DNA of 64,000 nt. Origin: Thermoproteota archaeon (lineage in GTDB: Archaea; Korarchaeota; Korarchaeia; Korarchaeales; JAOZGB01). Numbering within the stretch: position 1 is the stretch's first letter; every line of letters starts with the position of its first letter. Both the position numbers and the translations under genes were made by a program. The DNA lies in contig JAVCBU010000003.1 of assembly GCA_037917685.1 (NCBI GenBank), forward strand, positions 225,309-289,308. Direction: 5' to 3'. Shown here piece after piece: positions 1,209-14,210 of the stretch. The notes beneath the pieces were generated by a model. It saw nothing but the letters and a program-made list of their open reading frames with translations, made no database searches and was not told where the DNA came from.

Positions 1209-2153
1209 ATGGATTCCAGAGATCTCATATTGAACTTCGCGAAAGATCACGGTGTCAACATTGTAAGTGATGGTGACCTGGACGGGATATTCGCAGCAGG
1301 CCTACTTCTCCGGGGCCTGAACCTCTGTGGCGTCGAGGCCGGCTTAGACTCTGTAAGTTTCCCTCATCCTCGAAATCTCATTGGGATGAGGGTTGAAGGA
1401 TCTTTTCTAATAGAGCTTCCCCCATCGAAGGGGCTAGAATATTCCGGGTGGAACCTGCTTGTCGACCACCATGGTGGGGTGAGTGGCCTGCTTCTCTACA
1501 GGGATGGGAAGGTTGAAAACCACCTTATGATGGACGGAGCGAGCGTGGCTGAAATAGTTGTGAAGGCTCTTAGACTTGAACTGTCCTCTGAAGCGCTGCT
1601 TCTCGTCGACGCTGTTGGTAAGATAGACCAGGCAATCTACGACTCAAAGTTGATTGAGGACCTTCACAAGGCGTACCGGCTTGAAATTTCAAACCCGGAC
1701 ATGAGGGTTAGAGTTGCTGGCTGGGTTTACAAGGGAGAATGGCGGAGGATAATAGAGTGGGCTACAGAGACAGGCGGGAAGTGGAGCCTAGTTGAAGAGA
1801 GGGAGAAACACCTCTACAATAATAGGGTAAGCCTGTGCAGTGGCATAGTATATTTCACATATGATGGTTATGACCCTCTTGACCAGGCAGCTATGAGGGG
1901 CGCCATGTTCAAGCTCGAAGAAGAGTATAAGGTTGTTATAGCAGTAAGGATTGAGGACGGCAAGCCTGTCTCAGCCAGTATTGGAACAAAACAAGATATT
2001 GACCTTCAACCCTTGTTCTCGAAGCTTGCAGCTTGCGGGCTAAGCGCCGGTGGTAGGGGGAACATAGGAGGAGTTCAGGTATCAGGCTTAAGCCTGGGAA
2101 ACTTCCTAGAGCTGGTTAGGAAGGCGCTCTTAGAGATCGGGCTCTGTGAATAG
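1209..2153 (+). CDS. DHH-family phosphoesterase-like protein
   Basis: DGDLDG motif I, LVDHH motif and C-terminal AGGR (DHHA1-like). Start placed at ATG 1209 because the ORF-track start overlaps the divergent ROK gene. Confidence 0.75.
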   Translation: MDSRDLILNFAKDHGVNIVSDGDLDGIFAAGLLLRGLNLCGVEAGLDSVSFPHPRNLIGMRVEGSFLIELPPSKGLEYSGWNLLVDHHGGVSGLLLYRDGKVENHLMMDGASVAEIVVKALRLELSSEALLLVDAVGKIDQAIYDSKLIEDLHKAYRLEISNPDMRVRVAGWVYKGEWRRIIEWATETGGKWSLVEEREKHLYNNRVSLCSGIVYFTYDGYDPLDQAAMRGAMFKLEEEYKVVIAVRIEDGKPVSASIGTKQDIDLQPLFSKLAACGLSAGGRGNIGGVQVSGLSLGNFLELVRKALLEIGLCE

Positions 2154-2948
2154 CTGTATCACGCCCATACCCATCGTCTTGTGCGTTCCAATATTAGTAT
2201 ACGTTGCAGCCTTCACTATTCCCGCCAGCAGTCTTGAATACTTCTCATGGTCCCTCTCGCTGAAACCTCTCTGCCTATCCACTATGTAGGCTACGTTGCC
2301 TATGAACCCCGGCAGCTTGAACTCGCCCTCCAGCCTTCGTGTTTCAAGCTTGTATCTCTTAGCTGTGACACATCTAGAAACCCACTCCTGAAGTCCCTCA
2401 TACTCATGGGAGAGGAGGCTGGGATCCACGGTTTTGAATATTGAGAGCATGGAGTTCAAAATCCTCAGAGGAGTAGGAAACAAGTCATACAAGTTCGATG
2501 CCGCCATTTTGAAGCATGTAGGTGTTACAAACCTTAGGGTGAAGCTTTTAATAGGCTTGCTTCCCCCTATGATCTGCCTGAAACTTGAGGCTTCGAACTC
2601 AGCATTGGCAACATTAAAATCTAGGCCGCCTACACTTATAGATCTCCCCAGGGACTCTATCATCCTAACACCGAAACCCTCAAAGCCCTTACTATATACG
2701 CAGACCGTAAAATGGTAGAGACTGTTCTTCCTAATATGTCTGGGCATTCTTAGAAGCCCTCTTTCATCCCTGTAGAGTATTGGCGTCACAGAGTATGTTT
2801 TACGCTTTTCATAGTCGTGGAGAAACGATGCAAGCTCGGGGTAGGCTTCTCCAAGCATCTTGAAGAATACCCCTTGGATATCGTGTCCTGTGAATTCTAT
2901 GTTCCCCTCGGACATGGCTGTAAGGTTAAACCTAAGCTGCTGTATCAC
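2130..2948 (-). CDS. cas6: CRISPR-associated endoribonuclease Cas6 (stand-alone in this window)
   Basis: LH...YSVTP, LRFVTPTCFK, FP.P.RI, GFIG and the C-terminal G-rich loop IGTHKTMGMG. Confidence 0.88.
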   Translation of the reverse strand: MIQQLRFNLTAMSEGNIEFTGHDIQGVFFKMLGEAYPELASFLHDYEKRKTYSVTPILYRDERGLLRMPRHIRKNSLYHFTVCVYSKGFEGFGVRMIESLGRSISVGGLDFNVANAEFEASSFRQIIGGSKPIKSFTLRFVTPTCFKMAASNLYDLFPTPLRILNSMLSIFKTVDPSLLSHEYEGLQEWVSRCVTAKRYKLETRRLEGEFKLPGFIGNVAYIVDRQRGFSERDHEKYSRLLAGIVKAATYTNIGTHKTMGMGVIQLFTEPDL

Positions 2949-2999: not shown

Positions 3000-4292
3000 C
3001 TAGCCTACCGTAACGTTGTACGACTCCCCGTTAATTATAACCTCGTAGTCTCCCGGCTTGAGGTTTAATACCTCTATGGTTGTCATGGCACAGCCTATGC
3101 ACTGGATACACTCAACATTAAGACTATAAAGCTCGATTTCCACCACCAGCCTTTTATCCTCCAGTGTAAGGCTTATCCTTGGGGTATAGCATGGATCTGG
3201 GGTTTCGACAGTGTGCGAGATATATAGTGAGCCGTTGCTACCCTCCACCTTCACGCCTGGAGGCTTAAACATGCAGCTACAGCTGTACTGGTAGCTCCAG
3301 ATCATGCCGCCTTCAAGAGCTGAGTCGATGAGTACTGGTAGGAAACCTGTTGAAATGGCATCCTCAACCGCGGACCGGGTTGCATACCTGTCATGACCCG
3401 CGATCACAAGGATAACCTGTCCTCTAAACATGCCTGGAGGGTTGTAGTAAACCTTGTAATTGCTGTCTGTCTCCAATGCTCCAGATATGCTGGGTGGAAG
3501 CAGGAACCTTGAGAGAACGCCTATGTCCTGGTAGGCTAGAGGTCCGCCGAGGACTATTAGTACCTTGCTATCAATCCCCTCCGTAAAGTTTTCCATGGTG
3601 TACAACCTATAGGTAAGACCACGTTCTCTTAGAATTTCTTCTATAACAGGCAGGCTTAACCCCCTGTCTATACTGTTCGCCACCACACCAATTTCATCCT
3701 TGGCGTCGAAGCCGTTGACCATTATGTTTGCATGGCTTGGGCCGCACCTAAAGCCCATTTGTTCAAGGTCTACCCCCTGCTCTAGCTTCGCCCACTTAAT
3801 TACAGCGTCGGCAGGCATAAAGTTCCCCTCTGTAACCATGTAGCTCGACGGGTCAGGCGGCAAGTGGATGATTCCCGCTTTCAACAAGAGACCTAGTGCG
3901 CATTCCAGCGGCTTTTCGGAGCCTTCAAGCGTCGTATTAGTTTTCAAAGCTGAATAGTTAATACCAGGGTATATCCTCGCTGTTGCCTCTATGGGTAATG
4001 GTGTCATGGGCCCGGCTGGAAGCCATATCCCAAGCCGGAAAACAACTGTTTTGAATTCCACCTCTCCACCGTCAACGGTTCTATGCACAATTGTACTCTC
4101 CCAGGCGTCAACACCTACAGCCCTAAGCCTATTGACTGCATCTTCAACTGAGATATGCTCCCTTAGAACAACACCTATATGAGACCCGGTAGGCGGACAA
4201 GATATAACAAAAGTACAGGCAGAAAATAGGATAGCTGTGACGAGGATCACAACACCTTTAGAAATCTTCATCAAATATAATCTCTCATGCAT
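3000..4292 (-). CDS. Secreted/surface protein with S-layer-C-like segment and Cys-rich C-terminal Ig-like domain
   Basis: Hydrophobic N-terminus (likely start MKISKG), LIVLGGPLAY...IAGHDRYAT motif and C-terminal TPDPCY...CIQCI...L.PGDYEV. Confidence 0.6.
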   Translation of the reverse strand: MHERLYLMKISKGVVILVTAILFSACTFVISCPPTGSHIGVVLREHISVEDAVNRLRAVGVDAWESTIVHRTVDGGEVEFKTVVFRLGIWLPAGPMTPLPIEATARIYPGINYSALKTNTTLEGSEKPLECALGLLLKAGIIHLPPDPSSYMVTEGNFMPADAVIKWAKLEQGVDLEQMGFRCGPSHANIMVNGFDAKDEIGVVANSIDRGLSLPVIEEILRERGLTYRLYTMENFTEGIDSKVLIVLGGPLAYQDIGVLSRFLLPPSISGALETDSNYKVYYNPPGMFRGQVILVIAGHDRYATRSAVEDAISTGFLPVLIDSALEGGMIWSYQYSCSCMFKPPGVKVEGSNGSLYISHTVETPDPCYTPRISLTLEDKRLVVEIELYSLNVECIQCIGCAMTTIEVLNLKPGDYEVIINGESYNVTVG

Positions 4293-4441: not shown

Positions 4442-6115
4442 TTACTCTTTCAATCTCTTATACGCTTTTACAGCGTCGTAGGCCACTATTGCGCCTAAGA
4501 TGAATAGGACCAGGCCTACTATTCCGAATATCCCGTTTAGAGTTAAAGCTACCGTTGGATAGTTTGCGAGGCTTCCCTTCACTATGGGTGTTCCGAGTTT
4601 TATCGCGCGGAAGAACCCTGCAGATTCAAAGATTAAGGCAGCTTCACATGTTATTATCATAAATAGCGCTGGCGCCAATGTGTATATTGTTGGTCTCTTA
4701 GTCTTAGCTAGGAAGATTGTTACGAGGGTTAGCGCCAGGCCTGCTAGTAGCTGGTTTGAACCACCGAACAACAGCCACAGGTTTATCCATGCCCCTGTGT
4801 ATGCGAATATATCAGCTATTATTAGCCCTATCAATGCCCCCACATACTTGTTCCCGAGAACTCCTCCTCCCACCATGTCTCCCCAGACAAGCCAGAAGAA
4901 TCTCACAGCTATTATCCCTATCGTTATGGCGTATAGCTCAAGCCACATGGCGTAGAATGCTTTAATCCATGCAACCCCGGCTCCACCCGGTGCTATAAGC
5001 TTTGCTGCCCCTGCTACGAGGCTTTCCCATTTTACTCCTCCAAGTGTCTTTATTTCATCGGGTGTTAGAACCATATACGCCGCTAGGGATGCCAGGGCGA
5101 GTAATCCCTCTGTAAGCATTGCTCCTGCCCCTACTGGCAGAGCGTCGGTTTCAACATCTAGCTGGGTTGCTGATCCTGAGGTTGATACCAGGCTATGCCA
5201 TCCTGAAATCGCACCACAAGCTATTGACACTGTTAGGATCGGCCAAATAGGCCCCGGGTTCCAGAAGTTACCGGTTGTCCCGAGTATTCCCCCCCATGCT
5301 GTCTGCTCGATCTTAACTCCTGTTACCGGTGAGATCAGGGCCGCCAGGATTAGGAGTATGATTCCGAATATTGCTGGGTATGATGCCACGTATACTACTG
5401 GCTGGGCGAAATACATTAACGGTGCAACTGCGCCGATAAACAGTATTATACTTGTAAATATCATCCAGAAGGTTAGGTTTGCGTACTCTATCGGGTATAG
5501 CTTGCCCAGGATTATGCCTATTATGGTTATGATTAGTCCTATGGCTGTAGATGTCCCTATTCCCATTTTTACTTTAAACATCAGTACCCCGCTTGCTATT
5601 CCCCCTATAATCAGGAATATGATTGATAGCACTGAGACCGGGTATGTTTTGAAGAATACGCTGCACAGGACTGCGAAAACCGCTATTATTAGGATCAGGT
5701 AGAAGAATAGGAATCCCATGAGCATCTTTCTTGCCCTTGGGCTTATATACTCGTAGGTTAGCGGCCCCATCGTTTTACCTTCATTCCTGACAGACATGAA
5801 GAGGGATGAGTAGTCATGGATCCATCCTATGAAAAAGTTTCCAAGTAGTATCCAGATGAGGGCTGGAACCCAGCCGTAGAATAATGCGATAAAGGGTCCT
5901 AGTATCGGTCCTAGGCCTGCGATGCCTTTAAACTGGAATCCGTACAGTACGTACCTGCTTACAGGGAAAAATGTTATTCCATCCATGTACATGTGGGCTG
6001 GAGTGGCCTTCTCGGGGTCGGGCTTCCAGACATTTTTGTCGTACCACTTTGCGTAGAGCTTGTACGCCGCGGCGTATACTACTAGACCTAGAACTACGAA
6101 CCAGAATGGATACAT
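4442..6115 (-). CDS. cstA: Carbon starvation CstA-family transporter
   Basis: TPAH...DG...P, IAGLGPILGP, HDYSSLFMSVRNEG, SIACGAISGWHSL, GAMLTEG and LWLLFGGSNQLLA motifs; polytopic. Confidence 0.93.
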   Translation of the reverse strand: MYPFWFVVLGLVVYAAAYKLYAKWYDKNVWKPDPEKATPAHMYMDGITFFPVSRYVLYGFQFKGIAGLGPILGPFIALFYGWVPALIWILLGNFFIGWIHDYSSLFMSVRNEGKTMGPLTYEYISPRARKMLMGFLFFYLILIIAVFAVLCSVFFKTYPVSVLSIIFLIIGGIASGVLMFKVKMGIGTSTAIGLIITIIGIILGKLYPIEYANLTFWMIFTSIILFIGAVAPLMYFAQPVVYVASYPAIFGIILLILAALISPVTGVKIEQTAWGGILGTTGNFWNPGPIWPILTVSIACGAISGWHSLVSTSGSATQLDVETDALPVGAGAMLTEGLLALASLAAYMVLTPDEIKTLGGVKWESLVAGAAKLIAPGGAGVAWIKAFYAMWLELYAITIGIIAVRFFWLVWGDMVGGGVLGNKYVGALIGLIIADIFAYTGAWINLWLLFGGSNQLLAGLALTLVTIFLAKTKRPTIYTLAPALFMIITCEAALIFESAGFFRAIKLGTPIVKGSLANYPTVALTLNGIFGIVGLVLFILGAIVAYDAVKAYKRLKE

Positions 6116-6154
6116 GTCGGGTCTTATACTAAGTGCCGTATTAGCTTTTAAAAT

Positions 6155-6784
6155 TTGCCGATAGCTTTAAGGATTGTGGGACTTGGGGTCCTTATAGTTT
6201 TCACTCTGACGGCTGTGATGCTTATATCCTACTTCTACGGTAGACATGTGAACTATTCGCTTCAAAGAGGTTACTGGAAGGTCCTATCAGGGGTTGTTAA
6301 ATCGTATTCCAAGAAGGTTAGCTATAGAAGTCTCGGTTCTTCGATGTTTCAAGTTTCATTCCCTTGCAATCCGCCGTTAAAAAGGGTTGAGATAACAGTT
6401 CTACTTATGGATAGAGAATTCTTAACCCATTACATAGCCTCAAGACTTATGGGGAGGAGTGACGAGTTTATTCTCAAGGCTTCTTTCAGTAAAGACCCAG
6501 ACTTCACCTTTCAGATAGGCGGAAAGGCAAAGGGAATGGACAGGCTTGAGCCTGGCTGGGTTGGCTTTGAGGTTTATACTGATAATAAAGCTAGAGCCAT
6601 AAGGCTTCTAGGAGATAACGAGTTTAGGAGAACTATTAGGAGACTTAAAGGCAGAATTAACCTTCTTGTTATAGGTGAAGGGGTGCCAAACATTCTGGTT
6701 AGGTGCAAAGCCGAATCTGAAGTGGCAAGGCTTATGCTTAGGCTTGCGGAGAGAGCCTCCCACCTAGTGGCATCTAAGGTTTGA
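6155..6784 (+). CDS. Single-TM membrane protein, CCDC47/DUF1682-like
   Basis: N-terminal TM followed by YFYGRHVNYSL..GYW and ITVLLMDREFL..IASRL..RSDEFILK. Resembles CCDC47 as recalled from memory; not searched. Confidence 0.55.
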   Translation: MPIALRIVGLGVLIVFTLTAVMLISYFYGRHVNYSLQRGYWKVLSGVVKSYSKKVSYRSLGSSMFQVSFPCNPPLKRVEITVLLMDREFLTHYIASRLMGRSDEFILKASFSKDPDFTFQIGGKAKGMDRLEPGWVGFEVYTDNKARAIRLLGDNEFRRTIRRLKGRINLLVIGEGVPNILVRCKAESEVARLMLRLAERASHLVASKV

Positions 6785-7267
6785 AAGGATTCCAATAAAA
6801 TTTTCTGCTTCTTCAACTGACATGTCTCCCTCAGCTACTATATCTATTCTTCTAGCCGTCTCCTTGCACATGAATGCTACCTCTATTTTAGTCCATCTTA
6901 TCATGTCTCCAAGTAAGAGGTACTTCCTCCTTCCAGCTTTTTTAATAGAGTACCCTGCGTTGTGGCCGTTAATCTTCACAAACCCTGACCTAACAGAATT
7001 TCTGGAAGCCTTAGCCACCCATCTATCCAGGTTAAAACCTAGGATGGGTTCCCTGACCGTTATCTTTACGGCTAAAGGCTTTTCACCCCTTATAATATTG
7101 AGTGTAATGTAGCCCGATGCAACCCACCTATCTCCACCTGTCTCTCTCACGAGTTCAACATCTATATAGCCTGCAGGCCTAATCTGCCATTCTTCAGGTA
7201 GGAGGATACTTACGAACCTTACCTCTCCAAGGATTGGATTTTTGGCGTCGATGTTAGCTTTCTGCAT
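6764..7267 (-). CDS. Hypothetical soluble protein ending in ...LRCH
   Basis: 167-aa ORF with normal codon usage, inside the cstA-arsA cluster; AT-rich divergent promoter at ~7283-7300. Confidence 0.7.
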   Translation of the reverse strand: MQKANIDAKNPILGEVRFVSILLPEEWQIRPAGYIDVELVRETGGDRWVASGYITLNIIRGEKPLAVKITVREPILGFNLDRWVAKASRNSVRSGFVKINGHNAGYSIKKAGRRKYLLLGDMIRWTKIEVAFMCKETARRIDIVAEGDMSVEEAENFIGILSNLRCH

Positions 7268-7335
7268 TCAATATGGGCATCCTAAATTAAATATTAAAAG
7301 TGTGATGTGCCCAGAATACTCTGGCTTGAAAAGGT

Positions 7336-7590
7336 ATGCTCAGAAGGTTTAAATCAATATTAAGGGATTTCTTCTACGGCTTTGCCGTTCTAACTCCAGT
7401 TAAGTCTCTCAAGAAGGCTAAATTCATAGAGGACTCTGCAATGATGATTGTTGCCCTGGGCGACATGCTTGGTATACCATTTGCGCCGCCGATTTACAAG
7501 CTTAGAATTTTGCCATACTTTATTCCAATGGTCGGATTATGGAAGGAGTACATTTTAAAGGAGAAAGATATAGTGGAGAAGCTCGAATAG
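7336..7590 (+). CDS. Small CstA/ArsA-associated hydrophobic protein, paralog 1 (cory-CC-star-like)
   Basis: FFYG...MMIVALGDMLGIP..PP.Y.L..LPY...W...EKDI; clear paralog of 7654..7941. Confidence 0.75.
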   Translation: MLRRFKSILRDFFYGFAVLTPVKSLKKAKFIEDSAMMIVALGDMLGIPFAPPIYKLRILPYFIPMVGLWKEYILKEKDIVEKLE

Positions 7591-7653
7591 AAGCTGAAAA
7601 TTACAAACTTTTTTAAGCGGTGCTTTCCCCAACTATTAAGTGGTGATTGCAAG

Positions 7654-7941
7654 GTGTTATTCAAAAGGAAAAAGAAGGAGGAGGGGTCTGGAGAGGAGGT
7701 TAAGGAGGCTATAAAAGGAGTTTTCTATGGTATGGCTTCGCATCAAATGGTTAGATACATGCTTAAGACAAGGATGTACCTTGAGCATCTCTTCATGTTG
7801 ATAACCCTCGGCGACATGTTGGGGATACCGATACTTCCTCCTTACTATTCTCTAAAGCTTTTGCCCTATGCCCTACCTAATATTGAAAGTTGGAAGAGGA
7901 GGCTTTTCAAGGAGAGAGACATAACAGACATGCTTTATTAG
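7654..7941 (+). CDS. Small CstA/ArsA-associated hydrophobic protein, paralog 2 (cory-CC-star-like)
   Basis: VFYG...LEHLFMLITLGDMLGIPILPPYYSLKLLPY...W...ERDI. Confidence 0.78.
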   Translation: MLFKRKKKEEGSGEEVKEAIKGVFYGMASHQMVRYMLKTRMYLEHLFMLITLGDMLGIPILPPYYSLKLLPYALPNIESWKRRLFKERDITDMLY

Positions 7942-7950
7942 GGGATAGGT

Positions 7951-8955
7951 ATGCCCGTATCCCTACCCGAATTTCTTAGAGAAAACCCGGACATTAAGAT
8001 AATAGTCTATGCAGGCAAGGGGGGCCTAGGAAAAACCACCTGTAGTGCCGCAACAGCCTACTGGTTCGCCAAGCAGGGGAGAAAGCCCCTATGCTTTAGT
8101 ACAGATCCCCAGGCTTCCCTAAGCGACATATTTGAAAGAGATATCTTTGGGAAAGGCGTCGTGGAAATCATACCCAACCTCTACGTTGTAGAGATAGACG
8201 CTGACCGGAGAATCTCCGAGTTCCAGGATGAGATCAGAAAGCAGATAAAGGAGATGTACGGGTTAGAAGAGGTTCCGGGGGAGATTGAAGAGTATATCAA
8301 GACGTCTGCCTATGAGCCCGCGATGCATGAATCTGCAACCTATGATGCAATGGCAGACCTAGTCGCTAGTGGGAAGTATAATCCCTATATTTTCGACATG
8401 CCGCCCTTCGGCCACGGGGTTAGGATGATCTCAATGGCTCAGATACTTGACGCATGGATTGACAAGATGGAAGAGACCAGGAAGAAGGCTGCCGAATATG
8501 CTGCAGCAGCTGCTAAGCTTAGGGGAATCTCATCTGAAACCGAGGACGCTGTTATAAGGGAGCTTACATCTATTAGGGAAAAGCTTGACTTCTTCAGGGA
8601 CATGCTCACAAATGAGAGAACCTGCGCGTTCTTCATGGTTCTAATACCAGAAAAAATGGCTATACTCGACACCAAGAGGGCTCTAGAAATGTTTAGGAAG
8701 CTTAAAATAAGGCTTAGCGGTGTGATTGTCAACCAGGTTTACCCTCCAGAACTACTTGAAAGGAGAGACATAACCGACTTTCTAAGGAGAAGAATTGAAA
8801 TGCAACAGAGATATATGAAGGTTATTAACAGGGAGCTCGGGGAGTACGTCAGGGCTGTAATACCAATGTTCGACAGGGAGCCGAAGGGGATAGATATGAT
8901 TGCAAAGGTTGCCGAGCACATGTTTGAAAAGCCAGGTTTGGAGGTGTTTGAGTAG
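7951..8955 (+). CDS. ArsA/Get3/TRC40-family ATPase, canonical subunit
   Basis: P-loop GKGGLGKTT, switch I STDPQASL, switch II DMPPFGH, PEKM and IVNQV motifs. Confidence 0.93.
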   Translation: MPVSLPEFLRENPDIKIIVYAGKGGLGKTTCSAATAYWFAKQGRKPLCFSTDPQASLSDIFERDIFGKGVVEIIPNLYVVEIDADRRISEFQDEIRKQIKEMYGLEEVPGEIEEYIKTSAYEPAMHESATYDAMADLVASGKYNPYIFDMPPFGHGVRMISMAQILDAWIDKMEETRKKAAEYAAAAAKLRGISSETEDAVIRELTSIREKLDFFRDMLTNERTCAFFMVLIPEKMAILDTKRALEMFRKLKIRLSGVIVNQVYPPELLERRDITDFLRRRIEMQQRYMKVINRELGEYVRAVIPMFDREPKGIDMIAKVAEHMFEKPGLEVFE

Positions 8956-9971
8956 TGTCAGGCCATGTAACCTTTAAGATGTTTATCGAGCAAAACCCCA
9001 CGGTTAAATACCTCTTTACGGGGGGCAAAGGAGGGGTTGGAAAGACCATAGTGGCTGCTGGTATAGCCGCCTATTTTGCCGAAACCGGGAGAAAGACTCT
9101 TATAGCATCCCTTAACCCGGTACACTCCCTTTCAAGCCTTTTTGAGCAAGACCTCTCCGGGGGAGTTATAAAGGAAGTCTCAGGCATCGACAACCTATAT
9201 GCGATTGAAGTCGACATCACAGACAGGGTTAGAAGGTATAAAGAACAGCTTACCGAGAGGCTAAGATGGTTCCTAAAGTGGGCTGACATCTCTGTAAAGG
9301 CCGACGAGTTCATAGAGATAGCTTCAACTAACCCAGCATTTGAGGAGAGCGCCATGTTCGACGAAACCATAGATATAATGCTCAGAGAGGGTAAAAACTT
9401 TGACAAGATAGTTTTCGACTGCGCGGCCGTCGCAAACGCTGTGAGGCTTCTAGGACTTAACAAGATATATGGAATGTGGCTTAAGAGGATGATTAAGAGC
9501 AGGAAAGAAGCTTTGTCCCTAAGGGTTAAACTCTCATTCAGGAAGGATAAGGTTATGGAGGAGATAAAGAAAGACCCAATGATGGCGGATCTAATAGAGA
9601 TGAACAGGAAGATAACAGAGGCGTCAGGCATCTTCGGGAATCCCAAGCAAACAGCATTCTTCTTCGTAACTCTACCATTATCTCTCCCAATCTCCGTGGT
9701 TGAGAGGTTTATAAGGATGGTTCAAGGTTTCAACATAGCAGTAGGCGGGGTTATAGTAAACGGAGTGCTTAGGAGGGAGCTTGCTGAGAAGGGAACAGAA
9801 TATCTTAAGAATAAATATGAGGAGCAGAGAAGATACATGGAGATCATAAGAGAGAAAATGTGGCCTATGGTTAGAGCTGTAATACCGCTTTATGAGACCG
9901 AAATAGTCGGTGTAAGAATGGTTAAAAGAATCGCCAGCGATCTGGCATCCTGGACTCCAGAGAAGATGTAG
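8955..9971 (+). CDS. ArsA/Get3/TRC40-family ATPase, degenerate subunit
   Basis: P-loop GKGGVGKT is intact but switch I is SLNPVHSL and switch II is DCAAVAN. GTG start overlaps the upstream TAG by 1 nt. Confidence 0.9.
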   Translation: MSGHVTFKMFIEQNPTVKYLFTGGKGGVGKTIVAAGIAAYFAETGRKTLIASLNPVHSLSSLFEQDLSGGVIKEVSGIDNLYAIEVDITDRVRRYKEQLTERLRWFLKWADISVKADEFIEIASTNPAFEESAMFDETIDIMLREGKNFDKIVFDCAAVANAVRLLGLNKIYGMWLKRMIKSRKEALSLRVKLSFRKDKVMEEIKKDPMMADLIEMNRKITEASGIFGNPKQTAFFFVTLPLSLPISVVERFIRMVQGFNIAVGGVIVNGVLRRELAEKGTEYLKNKYEEQRRYMEIIREKMWPMVRAVIPLYETEIVGVRMVKRIASDLASWTPEKM

Positions 9972-10111: not shown

Positions 10112-11083
10112 ATGAACTCCGGGAAAATTCTCGTCGCCGGCGCCGGACCTGCAGGTCTTAGCTGTGCCTACAATGCCTCTATAAAAGGCTATAAAGTCCA
10201 CCTTTTAGAGAAGAGAGGCACCCTAGCCTACAAGCCTTGCGGCGGGGCCGTACCTGAAGAGGCTTTTAAATACATCCCATTCGCGGGCAAAAAGTTTATA
10301 CTGAATCGTATAGTTAGATGTAGGCTTACTATCCGCTGGAAGACTGTTAAGATTATTGAGGGTGAAACCTCCGGCTATATTATAGATAAGAGAACCCTCC
10401 TGGAAGAGCTATTATGCGCCGCGGAAGCTGAGGGGTGTAAGGTAAGCCTGAACAAGAGGGCAAAACCGTCCATGGCAGAGGACTACGACCTGGTAGTTGA
10501 CGCTACAGGGCATGAGAGGGCTCTAGCCCTACAGATGGGTGTAGACTACTCGGGTTACAAGCTTATACCAGCCTGCCAGCTATACTGTAGGGGGCAGGGT
10601 CCTGATGAAGATGAGATTTGGGTTGAAATAGTAGCCTACGGCTACCTCTGGGTGTTCCCACATGGAGGCGTATACAATGCTGGGATAGGAGGCTTCTCAA
10701 GTCCAACCATCCTAAGAAGGATACTCCTGTCGAGGCTTGAGGAGGCCGGTTTAAAACCACTGTCGAAGCCGAGATTTTCAGCCTTGTCTGTTGGAGGCGT
10801 TATAAAAACATTGAAGGCCGGAAGACTTATAATTATTGGGGAAGCCGCAGGCATGGTTATGCCATCGGTCGGTGAGGGGATAAGATATGCTCTTTACTCA
10901 GGGAAGATATGCCTCCGAGACTACCGTGAGAGATGGGAGGCGGAATACGGTTCCAGGTTTAGAAAGGCTCAAATGCTTCTAAAAATGCTACTATTAATGC
11001 CTGGGAGAATGAGGGTTAAAGCGATGAAGTACATGCCCATCCCGATACTAAAACTTTTCTACCAGGGAGCCCTCTCCAGCTAG
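10112..11083 (+). CDS. Geranylgeranyl reductase-family FAD oxidoreductase
   Basis: GAGPAG Rossmann motif, KPCGG, GYLWVFP and GEAAGMV.P..GEGI. Confidence 0.88.
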   Translation: MNSGKILVAGAGPAGLSCAYNASIKGYKVHLLEKRGTLAYKPCGGAVPEEAFKYIPFAGKKFILNRIVRCRLTIRWKTVKIIEGETSGYIIDKRTLLEELLCAAEAEGCKVSLNKRAKPSMAEDYDLVVDATGHERALALQMGVDYSGYKLIPACQLYCRGQGPDEDEIWVEIVAYGYLWVFPHGGVYNAGIGGFSSPTILRRILLSRLEEAGLKPLSKPRFSALSVGGVIKTLKAGRLIIIGEAAGMVMPSVGEGIRYALYSGKICLRDYRERWEAEYGSRFRKAQMLLKMLLLMPGRMRVKAMKYMPIPILKLFYQGALSS

Positions 11084-11174
11084 CATGTTCCAAATTTTAA
11101 ACCTGTTCCAGATAGTTTTATTTTTGGTTCATATGGTAAATTCTAATATGAAATCAGCGTACAATAATGTTAAA

Positions 11175-13337
11175 ATGAAATTTACGGTCTATGATGCCAT
11201 CGCAGCTATCATAGTCATAGCCCATCTCTCACTATTAACAATGGGAAGTGCCGGGCTCCCGACAGGTTGGGATACACCGTACCATCTTCTAATGGGGAAA
11301 ATGTACGCTGACTACGGTAGGGTTACTCTGTGGGACTACTACGAGTACGCCCCTGTTGGGAGGCCCCAGGTCTATCCGCCGCTCCTCCACGTTATAATTT
11401 GGTGGGTGCACAGCCTTACAGGGGTGGGCTACATATCGATCGGCAGGTTCTTTGCAGTAGTCCAGTTCCCCCTGGCTCTGCTTTCAATATACTATTATGT
11501 AAGAAGAATATTCGGGTGCCCCGAAGCCCTGTACAGCCTTATAACCCTCTCGTCTATTTCCATGTTTTGGATGTGGGAGGTAACCGTTGCCCCGACTGCG
11601 GTGCTTGTGATACTTTTCCCCGCATTCCTGTACTACTTTTACAAGAAAAGCCTCATACCCTCAACCCTGATACTTGTATGTGCATTTTACATGCATCTGG
11701 GGATGCCCATCGTATTTGTAGCTTCAGCCATCATGATAAGCCTGCTTGCTGCAGCTAAGAAAGTTGGATACTGGAGCTTCCTAGCAAAGTGTTTAGGGAT
11801 AGCCCTGCTTTTGTATCTACCATGGCTTATCCACGTATTAAAGAACCTTGAATACATACACGCCAGAATGATGGTCCACGGGTTCCAAGGTATAGCTTTA
11901 GGTTTCATTGCTGGAAACCTGGTATACCTGGTGTTAACGTTCGCAGGCCTTATAATTTCAATAGTAGAATATGGGAGGGGAACCCTAAAGTATCTTGTCC
12001 CGATAGCTGGCTTCATAGGGTTCCTTCCGACGTTCTCCTACGGGGCAAGATACTTCCTCCACTCACCTGTTGCAAACTCTATCCTTGCAGGAATAGCCGC
12101 TGCATGGGCTGTTAGAAAAGCTAGGCGGAGGCTTGCAGGGTGGGAGGGGAAAGCCCTAGCTGCAGCGATAATAATGGTGGTCTCCCTTCAGGCCGTGTGC
12201 GAGCCAACCCTAGGCTTAAGAAGGCCTTTCCAGAAGACGCCGAGACATCAGGGTAAGCGTTGCTCTTCACCCCTTCTGTCAGAGATTATGATGGCAAGTG
12301 GCGCTATGCCAAGCGACCCTTGGAGATTCTCATGTTCAGACCCGGATCTGCTAGCCCTCTCCGACTGGATAAGGGAGAACATCCCCGAGGATGAAATCCT
12401 CCACGTAAACATGGGGGCTGTAGCAGCTTATATCACACTAACCACAGGCAGGCTGACAGACAGCGGAATGTACGGTGAGGTTAGAACAGAGGAGATGATG
12501 GCCGCGATACATCAGGGTAGGAAGTCCGGGATATTCGTCTTCACTCCCTACGGGCCAGGAGGCAGGAGGATACCGGCAAACCTACATGGTAAGGAGCTCT
12601 TCCAGTCAGGCCCATACAAGGTTATAGAGATCTACCAGCCTGAACATGCAGACCTGACCTTGCTTAAAGGAAAGGTAAATATAAGCTGGGTATCCATAGC
12701 GGCAGGAAAGCCTGGGGATCTTGAAAACGCTAAAACACTACTTGAACAGCTGAACTATAAGTCAGTCGTAGTAGTGGTTCCCCAGGACAGGGTCAACAAG
12801 AGAAACCTACGCTTTATATCCGAAGTTTTCCAAGGGTACAATCTCGCCATGGAAATATTCGTCACAGACTGGGGCACCCTCCAAGACGTGTTAAGCCAGG
12901 TGAAGGCCAGCGGTATATCTAAAGTCATCCTATTAGTAACCCAGGACACACTCCCAGCCGGGGACCCAGCACAGGCTAGGGAAATGGTGGAAAGCGTGGG
13001 AGTTCAGATTTACTACTCAATAGCTGGACCGCCCCTTGTCGACCCAGGATGGGACAGGCCTAGACTAAGAAGCTTTCTTGAAGGGGGAAACGTTATAGTA
13101 CATATTCCAGCGCTTCCTGTCCTCGCTGATATTCTTGAGGCGGACCTGCAGGTCCTCGGCGATTGGGACTGTAACATCAAGGTTCAGGTGGACCTTGTTA
13201 AGGACAAGCCCCTAAGGGAAGATGTTCTGGCAAATACCCTAAGCCAGGCTTCCTGGTTCGACGTGGAATTAGGGGTAGGTATACCTGGAGACATGCTGTA
13301 TCAAGCCCTGGACATGATAAGCATTCTGCTAGGGTAG
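11175..13337 (+). CDS. GT-C superfamily (AglB/STT3/ArnT-like) membrane glycosyltransferase with large C-terminal extracellular domain
   Basis: GWDTPYH and GRPQVYPPLLH loop motifs, ~11 TM segments, then DWIRENIP. Start placed at ATG 11175. Confidence 0.7.
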   Translation: MKFTVYDAIAAIIVIAHLSLLTMGSAGLPTGWDTPYHLLMGKMYADYGRVTLWDYYEYAPVGRPQVYPPLLHVIIWWVHSLTGVGYISIGRFFAVVQFPLALLSIYYYVRRIFGCPEALYSLITLSSISMFWMWEVTVAPTAVLVILFPAFLYYFYKKSLIPSTLILVCAFYMHLGMPIVFVASAIMISLLAAAKKVGYWSFLAKCLGIALLLYLPWLIHVLKNLEYIHARMMVHGFQGIALGFIAGNLVYLVLTFAGLIISIVEYGRGTLKYLVPIAGFIGFLPTFSYGARYFLHSPVANSILAGIAAAWAVRKARRRLAGWEGKALAAAIIMVVSLQAVCEPTLGLRRPFQKTPRHQGKRCSSPLLSEIMMASGAMPSDPWRFSCSDPDLLALSDWIRENIPEDEILHVNMGAVAAYITLTTGRLTDSGMYGEVRTEEMMAAIHQGRKSGIFVFTPYGPGGRRIPANLHGKELFQSGPYKVIEIYQPEHADLTLLKGKVNISWVSIAAGKPGDLENAKTLLEQLNYKSVVVVVPQDRVNKRNLRFISEVFQGYNLAMEIFVTDWGTLQDVLSQVKASGISKVILLVTQDTLPAGDPAQAREMVESVGVQIYYSIAGPPLVDPGWDRPRLRSFLEGGNVIVHIPALPVLADILEADLQVLGDWDCNIKVQVDLVKDKPLREDVLANTLSQASWFDVELGVGIPGDMLYQALDMISILLG

Positions 13338-13343
13338 CCAGCG

Positions 13344-14210
13344 ATGATAACCACAATAATACTTGCAGGTGGGCTTAGCAGAAGGTTCAATCTTAGAGAC
13401 AAGCTTACATATAAGTTGGAAGGAAAAACCCTGATAGAGCACACCGTAGAAGCCGCGTCCGAGATTTCCGACGAGATAGTGGTCACCGTAGACAACAGTA
13501 GAAGACTGGAGAAGTACAAGGGAATCCTAGGCATGCATGATGTTACCTTCGCAGTAGACGACTCCTCAAAGGAGAGGACACCCATGAGGGGCATAATAGC
13601 GGGGGTTAAAGCCTCCCAAGGAGACGCCATAATAGTAATCCCGGGGGATGCTGTCCATATTAAAGGGGAAACACTGAGGCAACTTGTGGAGCCTTTAAAA
13701 CACGGCTTTAAGGCTGTATCACCGATTGCTCCCAACGGCGATGTTGAAACCCTTTTCCAAGCTGTCGATGCAGGAGAAGCCAGGGTAAACGCTGACCTGC
13801 TTGGCAGGTACGGGTGGAGAAGAGCTGACGGACTGCTCAGGCTATCGGAGAGTCAGTTATACATAGCCTTCGAGGACTACTGCCAGTTTAAAACGATTAA
13901 CAAGCCTGAAGACTTGAAAGCAGCGGATAACCCGCCCCCTCCCCTAGGCGAATCATATGTGAAAGCCGTGCAGAAGGAGAGGAGAATAAGCATCTCAGAC
14001 GTGGAACCTGATCTCTACTGGGTTGAAAAGCTCGTTGAACATGGAGAATACTTCCTAGCAGGAGTGCTCTCTATGGTGATACTTGGGGAGGCCGTAGCCC
14101 CGGGGGTTGAAGCATTTCGGAGAGAAGCTGCAAGATACTTAGACGCAGGCATAATAATGTTCGTGAGGCACGCCCTAAAAGATGCACTCTGGCTTCAAAG
14201 ACAGGTTTAA
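13344..14210 (+). CDS. MobA-like NTP transferase
   Basis: ILAGGLSRRF...DK, P..GI..G, PGD and INKPEDL motifs. Confidence 0.8.
   Translation: MITTIILAGGLSRRFNLRDKLTYKLEGKTLIEHTVEAASEISDEIVVTVDNSRRLEKYKGILGMHDVTFAVDDSSKERTPMRGIIAGVKASQGDAIIVIPGDAVHIKGETLRQLVEPLKHGFKAVSPIAPNGDVETLFQAVDAGEARVNADLLGRYGWRRADGLLRLSESQLYIAFEDYCQFKTINKPEDLKAADNPPPPLGESYVKAVQKERRISISDVEPDLYWVEKLVEHGEYFLAGVLSMVILGEAVAPGVEAFRREAARYLDAGIIMFVRHALKDALWLQRQV

Follow-up and report, generated by a model that had tools for sequence, protein, structure and literature searches.

The locus occupies positions 4442..9971 of the window, the 64,000-nt stretch of archaeal DNA analysed here. The ORF listing of the window contains seven ORFs in this interval, with positions and lengths in exact agreement with the original prediction. 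The genes and the two intergenic regions between divergent genes are as follows.

4442-6115, minus strand: cstA, 557 aa, CstA-family multipass carrier
6116-6154, no strand: divergent intergenic region 1, 39 nt
6155-6784, plus strand: cstY, 209 aa, single-pass membrane protein, shortened CCDC47 homologue as judged from its model
6764-7267, minus strand: p167, 167 aa, soluble protein with a modelled Mog1/PsbP-like fold
7268-7335, no strand: divergent intergenic region 2, 68 nt
7336-7590, plus strand: cstX1, 84 aa, DUF7990
7654-7941, plus strand: cstX2, 95 aa, DUF7990
7951-8955, plus strand: arsA1, 334 aa, single-domain ArsA/Get3-family P-loop ATPase
8955-9971, plus strand: arsA2, 338 aa, ATPase paralogous to ArsA1

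Both short divergent gaps are present on the sequence with the lengths first reported. The database gene call and the aligned orthologues of CstY begin at GTG 6176, so this GTG, rather than 6155, is probably the true start of cstY, giving a protein of 202 aa and a first gap of 60 nt. A palindromic TTTTAAAA box, read from the sequence, is present as a single copy at 6146-6153 within the first gap; it precedes the cstA ATG by 31-38 nt and GTG 6176 by 23-30 nt. This box is possibly an archaeal TATA box shared by near-leaderless cstA and cstY transcripts. The second gap contains an AT-rich TAAATTAAATATTAAAAG stretch at ~7283-7300 and is a putative promoter region. The 3’ ends of p167 and cstY overlap by 21 nt in convergent orientation, the gap between cstX2 and arsA1 is 9 nt, and the start of arsA2 overlaps the stop of arsA1 by 1 nt. 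Profile searches identify the neighbours as an S-layer-like gene, Cas6, a geranylgeranyl-reductase family gene, a PMT_2-like gene and an NTP-transferase, and find no arsB, acr3 or arsD within the window. The whole 95%-complete genome has no SBF/Acr3 or ArsD match, and its single ArsB-family match is on another contig, which agrees with the earlier claim that no arsenic genes lie nearby.

CstA matches PF02554 (E 2.4e-96) and has many hydrophobic windows along its length (Kyte-Doolittle). Its score against NF011590 (pyruvate/proton symporter CstA) is 153 bits, far under the equivalog cut-off of 1188. Orthologues of CstA at related loci are 48–76% identical. cstA is the sole CstA gene of the genome, and cstX1 and cstX2 are its only two CstX genes.

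The predicted 2+2 pattern of small proteins and ATPases is present. Specifically, CstX1 and CstX2 are 40% identical (E 3e-21), and ArsA1 and ArsA2 are 30% identical (E 4e-49). The description of the small proteins as hydrophobic paralogues holds for the paralogy and is overstated for the hydrophobicity. Each has a single, marginally hydrophobic segment near its C-terminal half, with a best 19-residue Kyte-Doolittle window of 1.56–1.58 against the usual mark of 1.6, and because of this marginal hydrophobicity their membrane location is uncertain. CstX2 carries the precomputed label PF25952 (DUF7990). Orthologues come from numerous archaeal lineages and from a few bacterial records; they are 49–82% identical to it and share a very conserved core, GDMLGxPxxPPYY...W..E.D. 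CstX1 matches NF041419 below the cut-off (E 1.9e-4), 34 of 43 aligned orthologues also match this model, and the mean column identity of the aligned orthologues is 35%. Judged from these sequences, CstX1 is the faster-evolving paralogue of the pair.

ArsA1 and ArsA2 match PF02374 (E 1.3e-66 and 4.4e-56), and their scores against TIGR00345 GET3/ArsA/TRC40 (212.5 and 196 bits) are above the cut-off of 135. For both, the closest PDB entries are two archaeal Get3 homologues, 3zq6 and 3ug6 (E 1e-41 to 4e-56). In alignment with archaeal Get3 structures, ArsA1 has the motifs GKGGLGKTT, STDPQASLSD and FDMPPFGH. Its P-loop and switch-I Asp52 are invariant in 49/49 sequences, and the STDP motif is found in 73/80 ArsA1-class ORFs, the remaining 7 having no motif match. 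ArsA2 has an intact P-loop and a degenerate switch II (FDCAAVAN), and the switch-I Asp is naturally replaced by Asn54, which is invariant in 49/49 sequences; the motif S[LT]NP is found in 61/68 ArsA2-class ORFs, with no motif match in the other 7. This Asn stands where the D57N mutant of yeast Get3 is reported to lose hydrolysis. Thus ArsA1 is predicted to be the catalytic subunit, and ArsA2 is predicted to bind nucleotide without hydrolysing it.

The gap between arsA1 and arsA2 is ≤10 nt in 62/67 loci, with a median of 2 nt. Each ATPase is monophyletic (support 0.99), and the patristic distances of the two are correlated (r = 0.93). Because the genes are in tandem and co-evolve and the catalytic residues are complementary, we infer that ArsA1 and ArsA2 form a heterodimer, whereas Get3/TRC40 is a homodimer. 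The CxxC zinc motif of Get3 is absent from both ATPases in the structure alignments, and their composition alone does not clearly point to a hydrophobic groove. A further difference from Get3/TRC40 is the linkage of the pair to one transporter gene. The pair is not the only Get3-type ATPase of the genome, since a separate Get3-like gene with a Cys-x-Cys motif is located elsewhere. BagA and BagB of Mycobacterium tuberculosis are also encoded by two adjacent Get3-like ATPase genes. The two ATPases match the BagAB models weakly (NF053622, E 2.6e-12 and 7e-11; NF053621, E 5.3e-10 and 3.7e-6), with scores of 47 and 39 bits, far under the equivalog cut-offs of 400 and 521. In the available text of the source, BagAB is tied to glycerol and nitric-oxide toxicity, not to CstA (PMC10597346).

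CstY consists of an N-terminal TM helix (Kyte-Doolittle 19-residue maximum 2.58 at residues 7-25) followed by a cytoplasmic α/β domain. The best Foldseek match of its AlphaFold model (pLDDT 95.4) is 7tm3_4 (E 5.3e-9, TM 0.74), and structural alignment with VIA-align gives Z 17.4 and rmsd 2.2 Å with 201/209 residues aligned. Further CCDC47 fold matches are 9i78_4 (Z 15.5) and 6w6l_7 (Z 12.4). The CstY family comprises 406 representative clusters. Of 80 family members, 23 match PF07946, the family of CCDC47, with one match exceeding the gathering cut-off, and profile positions 5-227 align colinearly; CstY of the window itself has no match to PF07946 in the profile search. The fold and the family-level matches uphold the earlier label “CCDC47-like”, and the model indicates that CstY is a true structural relative, a shortened homologue of CCDC47.

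CCDC47 is a subunit of the PAT complex and multipass translocon, and has the same N-terminal TM helix and cytoplasmic α/β domain. CstY lacks its lumenal N-terminal region; the TM helix of CstY begins at about residue 7 and is aligned from CCDC47 residue 135. CstY also lacks the C-terminal coiled coil or latch region: the family matches stop by position 227 of the 326 in PF07946, and the protein ends at residue 209. In CCDC47 this missing part bears the latch helices, which touch both Sec61 and the ribosome. TtfA (PDB 6t84) ranks fourth among the structural matches of CstY (Z 12.2, 147 residues aligned), a likeness in fold only, with 12% identity. TtfA is a membrane-anchored accessory factor required for the multipass transporter MmpL3 to work. 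MmpL3 belongs to a different family from CstA, and we know of no ATPase partner of TtfA.

p167 has no match in Pfam or NCBIfam. Its model (pLDDT 91.7) matches 18 chains with Z ≥ 8 (best 10.9), and the matches listed include PsbP, Mog1, DcrB, SciW, LpqN and Tsi3-type or uncharacterised chains. The model thus has a Mog1/PsbP-like fold, matched at the superfold level only (Z 9–11). Cys134 and Cys166 are present throughout (45/45 sequences) and His102 and His167 nearly so (44/45), and this His/Cys site may bind metal. Where a locus has both p167 and cstY, the two are neighbours in 31 of 38 cases, and p167 is a conserved seventh component of the module.

Among 43 genomes of the phylum, CstA is present in 20, CstX2 in 19, all among those 20, and p167 in 18, all of which also hold CstX2; CstY is present in 17 of the 41 genomes searched. 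CstX2 and p167 are found in none of the 23 genomes without CstA. These genomes are kin and the counts are not independent, and the linkage of CstA, CstX2 and p167 is far beyond chance. Across many lineages, 31 CstX2-anchored loci have at least 6 kb on each side. These contain CstA in 30, both ATPases in 31, at least two CstX genes in 28, CstY in 25 and p167 in 23, and all seven families occur together in 19. cstX2 almost always directly precedes arsA1: a CstX gene is <200 nt upstream of ArsA1 in 76/80 loci, and the median gap is 15 nt. The expected co-occurrence is therefore observed: the families travel together in at least 18 gene orders, 18 being counted in the 31 loci alone, and in many archaeal lineages and a few bacteria. 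The seven archaeal genes are a real, widely conserved module around the CstA nutrient transporter.

The module had been called undescribed. Castillo and Saier, however, named cstA-cstX-cstY-arsA-homologue operons in archaea and bacteria from gene order, with 26 SEED instances and no experiment reported in the available text (Castillo & Saier 2010, Int J Microbiol 2010:187373, PMC2963123). They describe CstX as ~90 aa and sometimes duplicated, CstY, from archaea, as a ~210-aa protein with one TMS, and the ArsA homologues as single-domain proteins of ~330 aa in ArsA clusters 14-18, some in adjacent pairs ~25-31% identical, with a conserved D that “can be substituted only by N”. They also report that CstA, CstX and the ArsA homologues co-evolve, and propose ATP-energised CstA transport with CstX as the linker, so the transporter option of the original prediction is not new. 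The size classes, the CstX duplication, the ATPase pairs and the absence of ars genes agree with our locus. The available text of that paper leaves the 167-aa protein unnamed, makes no connection between CstY and CCDC47, the structure of which is more recent, and does not remark on the Asp/Asn asymmetry of the ATPase pair. The kinship of CstY with CCDC47, the fold and His/Cys set of p167, the Asp/Asn asymmetry and the marginally hydrophobic CstX as DUF7990 were not found in print, and the literature seems to hold no experimental test of the cst module.

For this module the analysis shows the gene content, the paralogy, the conserved linkage, the asymmetry of the catalytic residues, the folds of CstY and p167 and a lack of ars genes. 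Our tentative reading, with a probability of roughly 0.45, is an ATP-coupled or ATP-gated CstA carrier complex with putative contacts. The ATPases look specialised, with each forming its own clade, neither having the CxxC motif and a separate Get3-like gene elsewhere in the genome; their catalytic sites are asymmetric, with an invariant Asp in ArsA1 and an invariant Asn in ArsA2, the genes from cstX2 to arsA2 are tightly coupled, linkage extends within the phylum and across lineages, and CstA and the two CstX proteins are unique to the locus in the genome. ArsA with ArsB and TtfA with MmpL3 would be precedents. ArsA turns the ArsB carrier into an ATP-driven pump, likewise with a P-loop ATPase of the same Pfam family, gene-linked to a secondary-carrier-type membrane protein, and with two non-equivalent ATPase halves. 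In ArsAB the halves are fused in one two-domain ATPase, whereas the cst module has two separate genes, a different carrier family and four extra accessory proteins. Characterised CstA/BtsT carriers are proton symporters without an ATPase, which counts against ATP coupling. Six accessory proteins are also many for an energy coupler, because ArsAB needs only one. The marginal hydrophobicity of CstX and one relative (G006), which has CstA and two CstX genes with CstY and p167 undetected by the profiles used, argue in the same direction.

The relatives of the accessory proteins also point away from transport. CCDC47, the one characterised relative of CstY, serves membrane-protein biogenesis, Get3 relatives chaperone TM helices, and some p167-like folds bind them. 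The main rival reading, which we regard as rather doubtful, is that the module is a dedicated biogenesis or assembly machine that inserts or folds CstA. The Get3-like pair would hold hydrophobic segments, CstY, perhaps with CstX, would be a PAT-like intramembrane chaperone, and p167 would be a cytoplasmic TM-helix chaperone. The CCDC47 fold of CstY, the TIGR00345 scores of both ATPases and the Eag/SciW chaperones in the fold class of p167, solved bound to effector TM domains, favour this reading, and strict one-to-one linkage to CstA would suit a single client. However, CstY is without the C-terminal part of CCDC47, and no Asterix-like partner is recognised in the module; specifically, 43 CstX1-type sequences match no Pfam family at E <0.01 and no Asterix family even at E ≤1. 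Both ATPases lack the CxxC motif, p167 matches its class at the superfold level only, and it would be unusual for a single client to have an ATP-dependent machine of six proteins.

The Get3-family fold of the ATPases and the hydrophobic segment of CstX could also fit a GET-like archaeal pathway that targets tail-anchored or other membrane proteins in general and merely lies beside cstA, with CstX as receptors or clients. This is improbable, because the distribution of such a pathway would not be expected to follow that of one transporter: the module is found only where CstA is present (19/43 phylum genomes), CstA stays in the cluster at 30/31 roomy loci while gene order varies, and the genome has a separate Get3-like gene. 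An ArsA-type arsenite/antimonite efflux ATPase is very unlikely: both proteins match PF02374 (“anion-transporting ATPase”) and, weakly, the ArsA models, but they reach only 88 bits against the TIGR04291 equivalog cut-off of 650, are single-domain, compared with ~580 aa for the two-domain form, cannot have a conserved, metalloid-binding Cys triad because only one Cys column in ArsA1 and none in ArsA2 is conserved at ≥50%, and lie in a window without arsB, acr3 or arsD. The cst operons described previously were also found to have no ars genes (PMC2963123).

In the ATP-coupled or ATP-gated carrier complex, the seven gene products would form one membrane assembly around CstA. ArsA1 and ArsA2 would be a cytoplasmic pseudo-symmetric heterodimer with a hydrolysing site (Asp52) and a nucleotide-binding-only site (Asn54). 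The heterodimer would dock on CstA through CstX1, CstX2 and single-pass CstY, with soluble p167 beside the cytoplasmic domain of CstY. All of these physical contacts are putative, as are the substrate, the transport direction and the part played by ATP. The coupling logic would be that of ArsA driving ArsB, namely the Castillo–Saier hypothesis with added parts. Binding and hydrolysis of ATP would energise or gate substrate uptake by CstA. Going by the characterised CstA/BtsT proteins, the substrate is probably a carbon source of the pyruvate or peptide type.

The locus comprises seven genes, all of which were found in the ORF listing at the coordinates of the original prediction.

Genes of the locus (window coordinates, strand, product)
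4442-6115, minus strand: cstA, CstA-family carrier (PF02554, E = 2.4e-96)
6155-6784, plus strand: cstY, 209 aa (202 aa from the GTG at 6176)
6764-7267, minus strand: p167, no family match
7336-7590, plus strand: cstX1, 84 aa
7654-7941, plus strand: cstX2, 95 aa, labelled PF25952 (DUF7990)
7951-8955, plus strand: arsA1, 334 aa, single domain (PF02374, E = 1.3e-66)
8955-9971, plus strand: arsA2, 338 aa, single domain (PF02374, E = 4.4e-56)

The sequence confirms the two predicted divergent gaps, of 39 nt (cstA/cstY) and 68 nt (p167/cstX1). cstX2 ends 9 nt before arsA1, arsA2 starts on the final base of the arsA1 stop codon, and the convergent genes cstY and p167 overlap by 21 nt. The predicted 2+2 pattern of paralogues is also present, with 40% identity between the small proteins and 30% between the ATPases. 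Each divergent gap contains one AT-rich TATA-like box, as read from the sequence, and the two boxes are candidate promoters. The TTTTAAAA box at 6146-6153 is compatible with the cstY GTG start at 6176, which is shared by the database gene call for this protein (P0001, 202 aa) and the aligned orthologues. CstY, p167, CstX1, and CstX2 have no match in the Pfam set searched.

The module is genuine, strongly conserved, and of a kind described by comparative genomics in 2010. The original prediction regarded it as undescribed, which fails because the gene context was already published: Castillo & Saier (2010; PMC2963123) describe operons of cstA, cstX, cstY, and an arsA homologue, and name Thermococcus kodakarensis and Pyrobaculum species among the carriers. 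Specifically, they report 26 instances of cstA linked with an ArsA homologue, and characterize CstX as an 'auxiliary' protein of ~90 aa with a single TMS, CstY as a single-TMS protein of ~210 aa in five archaea, and the ATPases as single-domain proteins of ~330 aa. Adjacent ATPase pairs are reported for two organisms and duplicated CstX for two, in operons without ars genes (PMC2963123). The proposal made there is that the ArsA homologue energises CstA transport with CstX as the linker, and the second option of the original prediction, an ATP-energised or regulated CstA transporter, is that published hypothesis. The window locus has the same components, namely a CstA-family gene (PF02554), two paralogous small proteins of 84 and 95 aa, an archaeal 209- (or 202-) aa protein with a single TMS, and single-domain ATPases of 334 and 338 aa without ars genes. 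We infer from size, context, and taxa that the small proteins are the CstX of that paper; size and context likewise indicate that the 209-aa protein is its CstY. The literature search found no experiment on the module, the 2010 comparative study being the sole paper found. Full-text searches for CstX/CstY gave no other relevant paper, nothing relevant to archaeal CstA expression was among the matches listed, and a search for 'cory-CC-star' found nothing.

A survey of 43 genomes of the phylum, including that of the window, defines how closely the module follows CstA. CstA is present in 20 of the 43 genomes, one of which, 72% complete, yields only a fragment. CstX2 is present in 19, every one inside the CstA set, p167 in 18, every one inside the CstX2 set, and CstY in 17 of the 41 genomes searched. 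CstX2 and p167 are absent from all 23 phylum genomes without CstA. These genomes are related by descent, and the counts are therefore not independent events. One relative (genome G006, contig C2:235064-237639) has CstA and two CstX genes, and neither CstY nor p167 was found there with the profiles used. In another (genome G015), the module is divided over two contigs, with CstX1-p167-CstY apart from CstA-CstX2 (C5:172277-173344, C16:100344-102391).

A wider survey of species-representative genomes with a CstX2 alignment (A4) returned 80 loci. Their record titles name Thermoproteota and Korarchaeia-type MAGs, Bathyarchaeia, Thor-, Heimdall-, Hermod-, Baldr-, and Sif-archaeota, Caldarchaeum, Geothermarchaeota, Pyrodictiaceae, Desulfurococcales, Sulfolobales, Pyrobaculum, and three bacteria (Terriglobales or Acidiferrales). 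Stop-to-stop ORFs were scored by HMMs or phmmer from the window and its relatives. Many loci lie on short contigs, and the 31 whose flanks reach 6 kb or more on each side constitute a roomy subset. Among these loci, whose selection via CstX2 affects the co-occurrence counts, ArsA1 is present in 78/80 (31/31 roomy), ArsA2 in 68/80 (31/31), CstA in 66/80 (30/31), at least two CstX in 64/80 (28/31), CstY in 49/80 (25/31), and p167 in 45/80 (23/31), the last two counted with profiles from close relatives that may miss divergent copies, such as Pyrobaculum/Sulfolobales CstY. Such a gene-neighbourhood survey was the check proposed with the original prediction, and conserved co-occurrence was seen, with all seven families together in 19 of the 31 roomy loci and 18 distinct gene orders among the 31. 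The linkage is kept despite the shuffled gene order, which is strong evidence of a common function. In 76 of 80 loci, fewer than 200 nt separate a CstX gene from the ArsA1 gene downstream of it (median gap 15 nt), the ArsA1-ArsA2 gap is at most 10 nt in 62 of 67 loci, and CstY adjoins p167 in 31 of the 38 loci carrying both.

Other than lineage-limited extras, no additional conserved neighbour was found in the related-loci survey. In 11 of the 80 loci, one or two extra proteins of ~120-135 aa are encoded inside the module (Caldarchaeum, Pyrodictiaceae, Thermoprotei, and one Korarchaeia-type record; L102:12535-12942(-), L102:12998-13375(+), L058:8613-8981, L100:5631-5987, L118:4165-4551). A Cys motif is present near their N-terminus, their Thioredoxin_3 matches are weak and below threshold (E = 0.002-0.02), and the window contains no copy. 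In 10 loci, all of Thor or Hermod type (L079:12517-12900(+), L073-L075, L078, L080-L083, and L087), the gene after arsA2 encodes a ~119-aa protein without a Pfam match. The same 10 loci often have three or four CstX genes.

The two ATPases belong to the Get3/ArsA family. Both pass the cut-off of TIGR00345 (Get3/TRC40/ArsA; 135 bits), with 212.5 bits for ArsA1 and 196 bits for ArsA2, and the top solved relatives of both are the archaeal Get3 homologues 3zq6 and 3ug6. The P-loop, a deviant Walker A GKGGxGKT, is invariant in both ATPase alignments.

Motifs of the ATPase pair and of archaeal Get3
P-loop: intact in ArsA1, in ArsA2, and in archaeal Get3 (alignment)
Switch I: STDPQASLSD in ArsA1, SLNPVHSLSS in ArsA2, STDPAHSLSD in archaeal Get3
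Switch II: FDMPPFGH in ArsA1, FDCAAVAN in ArsA2, FDTAPTGH in archaeal Get3
CxxC hinge motif: no Cys in ArsA1, no Cys in ArsA2, present in archaeal Get3

Neither ATPase has a Cys where Get3 has the zinc motif of its dimer hinge (C-E-F-C or equivalent). Each Get3 subunit has a catalytic Asp in switch I; ArsA1 retains it (Asp52), whereas ArsA2 has Asn54. Both residues are invariant in 49/49 orthologues, the sets consisting of the window protein with 48 of 69 complete ArsA1 ORFs and with 48 of 62 complete ArsA2 ORFs, respectively. Among the 80 ORFs of the ArsA1 class, 73 contain STDP, and 61 of the 68 ORFs of the ArsA2 class contain S[LT]NP; those without a motif match are probably truncated. In yeast Get3, the Asp-to-Asn substitution at switch I blocks hydrolysis and keeps ATP binding. 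By this analogy, ArsA2 is predicted to be a subunit that binds nucleotide without hydrolysing it.

In a tree of the 49 + 49 sequences and the two other paralogues of the genome (mafft and FastTree), ArsA1 and ArsA2 are each monophyletic with support of 0.99. Pairwise distances of ArsA1 and ArsA2 correlate with r = 0.93, to which shared ancestry alone contributes. The sequences thus fit an old duplication that may have been passed on as a pair. On another contig of the genome, a separate Get3-like gene stands by itself and encodes a Cys-x-Cys motif. Get3 has a hydrophobic, Met-rich client groove in its helical subdomain; in a comparison of composition only, the hydrophobic fraction is 0.44-0.45 in the pair versus 0.38-0.51 in the genome's other Get3-like protein. 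A complex prediction of ArsA1, ArsA2, CstX1, and CstX2, with the chains supplied as alignments and CstX2 scored, gave ipSAE values of 0.10 and 0.02, where the mark is 0.32, and weighs on neither side of the question of binding. Past switch II of ArsA2 lies a highly conserved helix of strongly basic character (residues ~176-205, many of them near-invariant) with 17 Lys+Arg versus 8 Asp+Glu, which ArsA1 lacks. As a speculation, this helix is a candidate docking surface.

The window CstX2 (P0155) and 120/120 of the relatives listed have the precomputed label PF25952, which is DUF7990 of Pfam 38.1 (name from the ESM Atlas). CstX1 and CstX2 also give weak, below-cut-off matches to NF041419, 'cory-CC-star protein'. 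Across the lineages of the module, CstX2 is 49-82% identical to the window protein with mean column identity of 60%, and CstX1 is much less conserved, with mean column identity of 35%. The sole hydrophobic stretch of CstX, in which Gly-Asp-x-x-Gly-x-Pro is invariant, has borderline hydrophobicity for a TM helix; membrane insertion is plausible. We also considered Asterix as a counterpart of CstX. Asterix-family Pfam profiles had no match at E ≤ 1 among the 43 CstX1-type sequences scanned (set A9), and the identification received no support from these scans.

CstY has one strong N-terminal hydrophobic (TM) segment (KD19 2.58). A word-index homologue search found three CstY and two p167 proteins, and whole-genome and representative searches were then used; the profile search of 1.84 billion representatives returned 406 CstY relatives. 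The AlphaFold model of CstY, from an alignment of the window protein and 79 of 150 listed relatives picked by eye with partial matches dropped, has pLDDT of 95.4. Its top Foldseek match is 7tm3_4 (E = 5.3e-9, query TM 0.74), followed by 9i78_4 and 6w6l_7. All three entries are ribosome-translocon complexes containing CCDC47, and we take chains 7tm3_4 and 6w6l_7 to be CCDC47. VIA-align superimposes CstY on 7tm3_4 with Z of 17.4 and rmsd of 2.2 Å (201/209 residues, target 135-397), on 9i78_4 with Z of 15.5 (target 76-368), and on 6w6l_7 with Z of 12.4. TtfA (6t84) is next after the CCDC47 chains, with Z of 12.2, and unrelated folds reach at most 7.3. The 9i78 paper names CCDC47 residues 76-370, corresponding to the aligned 76-368, which identifies chain 4 as CCDC47.

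Family-level sequence matches agree with the fold. The CCDC47 profile PF07946 was matched by 23 of the 80 aligned CstY members (E ≤ 0.1), by 15 of 40 members scanned singly (E ≤ 0.01), and by 6 of 42 CstY from named loci. One member exceeds the gathering score (33.5 versus 27.7 bits), and the matches of the 15/40 set align colinearly to positions 5-227 of the 326-position profile. The window CstY has no PF07946 match at E ≤ 0.1. A search of PDB sequences with the CstY profile (A5) found no CCDC47 chain, the best match being a syntaxin (E = 0.075), and a single-sequence search with P0021 for CCDC47 found nothing at E up to 10. What links CstY to CCDC47 is thus its fold, along with the Pfam matches seen in members of the family. 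Like CCDC47, the CstY model has a TM helix followed by a globular alpha/beta domain, cytoplasmic in CCDC47. Unlike CCDC47, CstY has no C-terminal coiled-coil/latch helices: it ends at residue 209 and the Pfam matches stop by 227 of 326, so that the C-terminal third of CCDC47 is missing. Judged by predicted fold and family-level matches, CstY is a shortened CCDC47, and the original description of this protein as CCDC47-like stands for the family, the window protein itself having no Pfam match. No title or abstract among the matches listed has a prokaryotic CCDC47 relative as its subject, subscription-only papers lying outside the search.

The seventh protein, p167, has no sequence-family match in Pfam, NCBIfam, or the homologue search. 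Its model (pLDDT of 91.7, from an alignment of only 9 sequences) is an alpha-beta-alpha sandwich of the PsbP/Mog1/DcrB/DUF1795 class. Foldseek E values start from 3e-4, and 18 representative chains, mostly of that class, have Z of at least 8 (best 10.9, 128 residues aligned). SciW and EagT6, whose structures were solved with effector TM regions bound, belong to this class, as do many unrelated binding proteins; the fold by itself assigns no function. Cys134 and Cys166 are present in 45/45 sequences and His102 and His167 in 44/45 (the window and 44 from the 80 loci), which suggests a metal or redox site. Together with the Cys-motif extras of ~120-135 aa, this His/Cys set gives a hint that the system involves thiol or metal chemistry.

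Further genes surround the module in the window. A Cas6-type endoribonuclease gene is located close upstream (2130-2948(-), PF10040 E = 5.3e-12). The gene at 3000-4292(-) encodes a 430-aa protein with a weak, sub-threshold match to an S-layer outer domain (PF05124 E = 4.6e-4). The gene at 11085-13337(+) encodes a membrane protein of 750 aa that matches the PMT_2 glycosyltransferases weakly (E = 2.5e-4), and the next gene encodes a MobA-like NTP-transferase (13344-14210(+), E = 3.4e-24); the two may be a glycosylation pair. Both ArsA/Get3-type loci of the genome adjoin a gene for a geranylgeranyl-reductase-family flavoprotein (window 10112-11083(+) and L001:199-1395(+), on a separate locus; 23% identity, E = 3e-11). 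The flavoprotein is absent from the related-loci survey, and the adjacency is therefore probably coincidence.

We favour the reading that the seven proteins would form an ATP-coupled or ATP-gated CstA complex, with a rough probability of 0.45. It is favoured because the module tracks CstA one-to-one, because features specific to Get3 are gone from the ATPase pair and the genome keeps a separate Get3-like gene at another site, and because ArsA-ArsB and TtfA-MmpL3 provide precedents. Specifically, ArsA with ArsB and TtfA with MmpL3 are accessory proteins that serve mature transporters.

Dedicated biogenesis of CstA is the next candidate and is considerably less probable. The only known function of CCDC47, the Get3 fold of the ATPases, and the Eag-like fold class of p167 all point towards it, but CstY is without the CCDC47 parts that are active at the translocon, and six proteins would be required for a single client. 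A wider proposition regards the module as a prokaryotic counterpart, by kinship, of the machinery with which eukaryotes make membrane proteins; CstY, the DUF7990 proteins as small membrane partners in the place of Asterix, and the Get3-type pair would chaperone TM segments of a multipass client. We consider this rather unlikely; if true, it would show relatives of CCDC47 and Get3 in a single pathway, and the presence of the module in Asgard archaea could point to the ancestors of the PAT complex. A general targeting pathway fits poorly and is improbable.

An arsenic pump fits worst. The metalloid-binding cysteines of ArsA form a triad, and no conserved Cys triad is present in the pair: Cys columns of at least 50% number one in ArsA1 (C48, 82%) and zero in ArsA2 (49 sequences each). 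Against the ArsA equivalog TIGR04291, both ATPases score 88 bits versus a cut-off of 650, with one domain each instead of the ~580-aa two-domain architecture. As the original prediction stated, no ars genes are nearby: arsB, acr3, and arsD are absent from the window, SBF/Acr3 and ArsD have no match in the genome, and the sole ArsB-family match is on another contig. The missing triad, the low score, and the lack of ars genes make an arsenic pump very unlikely. The remaining probability lies with functions outside those weighed here.

The points of interest are the relationship to CCDC47, the seventh protein with its His/Cys set, and the Asp/Asn asymmetry that occurs naturally between the two ATPases. 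Energy-limited archaea of many lineages carry the module (Korarchaeia-type, Bathyarchaeia, Asgard, Caldarchaeum, and Thermoprotei among them), and it is found in some bacteria. Its cstA encodes the sole CstA carrier of the genome, and the module probably governs uptake of a key carbon source in its hosts. It would be either a second case in which a secondary carrier is driven by an ATPase of the ArsA type, or a device of prokaryotes for membrane-protein assembly. On either reading, a relative of CCDC47 and relatives of Get3 are united in one conserved gene set, and the ancestral job of CCDC47 becomes testable in cultivable archaea.
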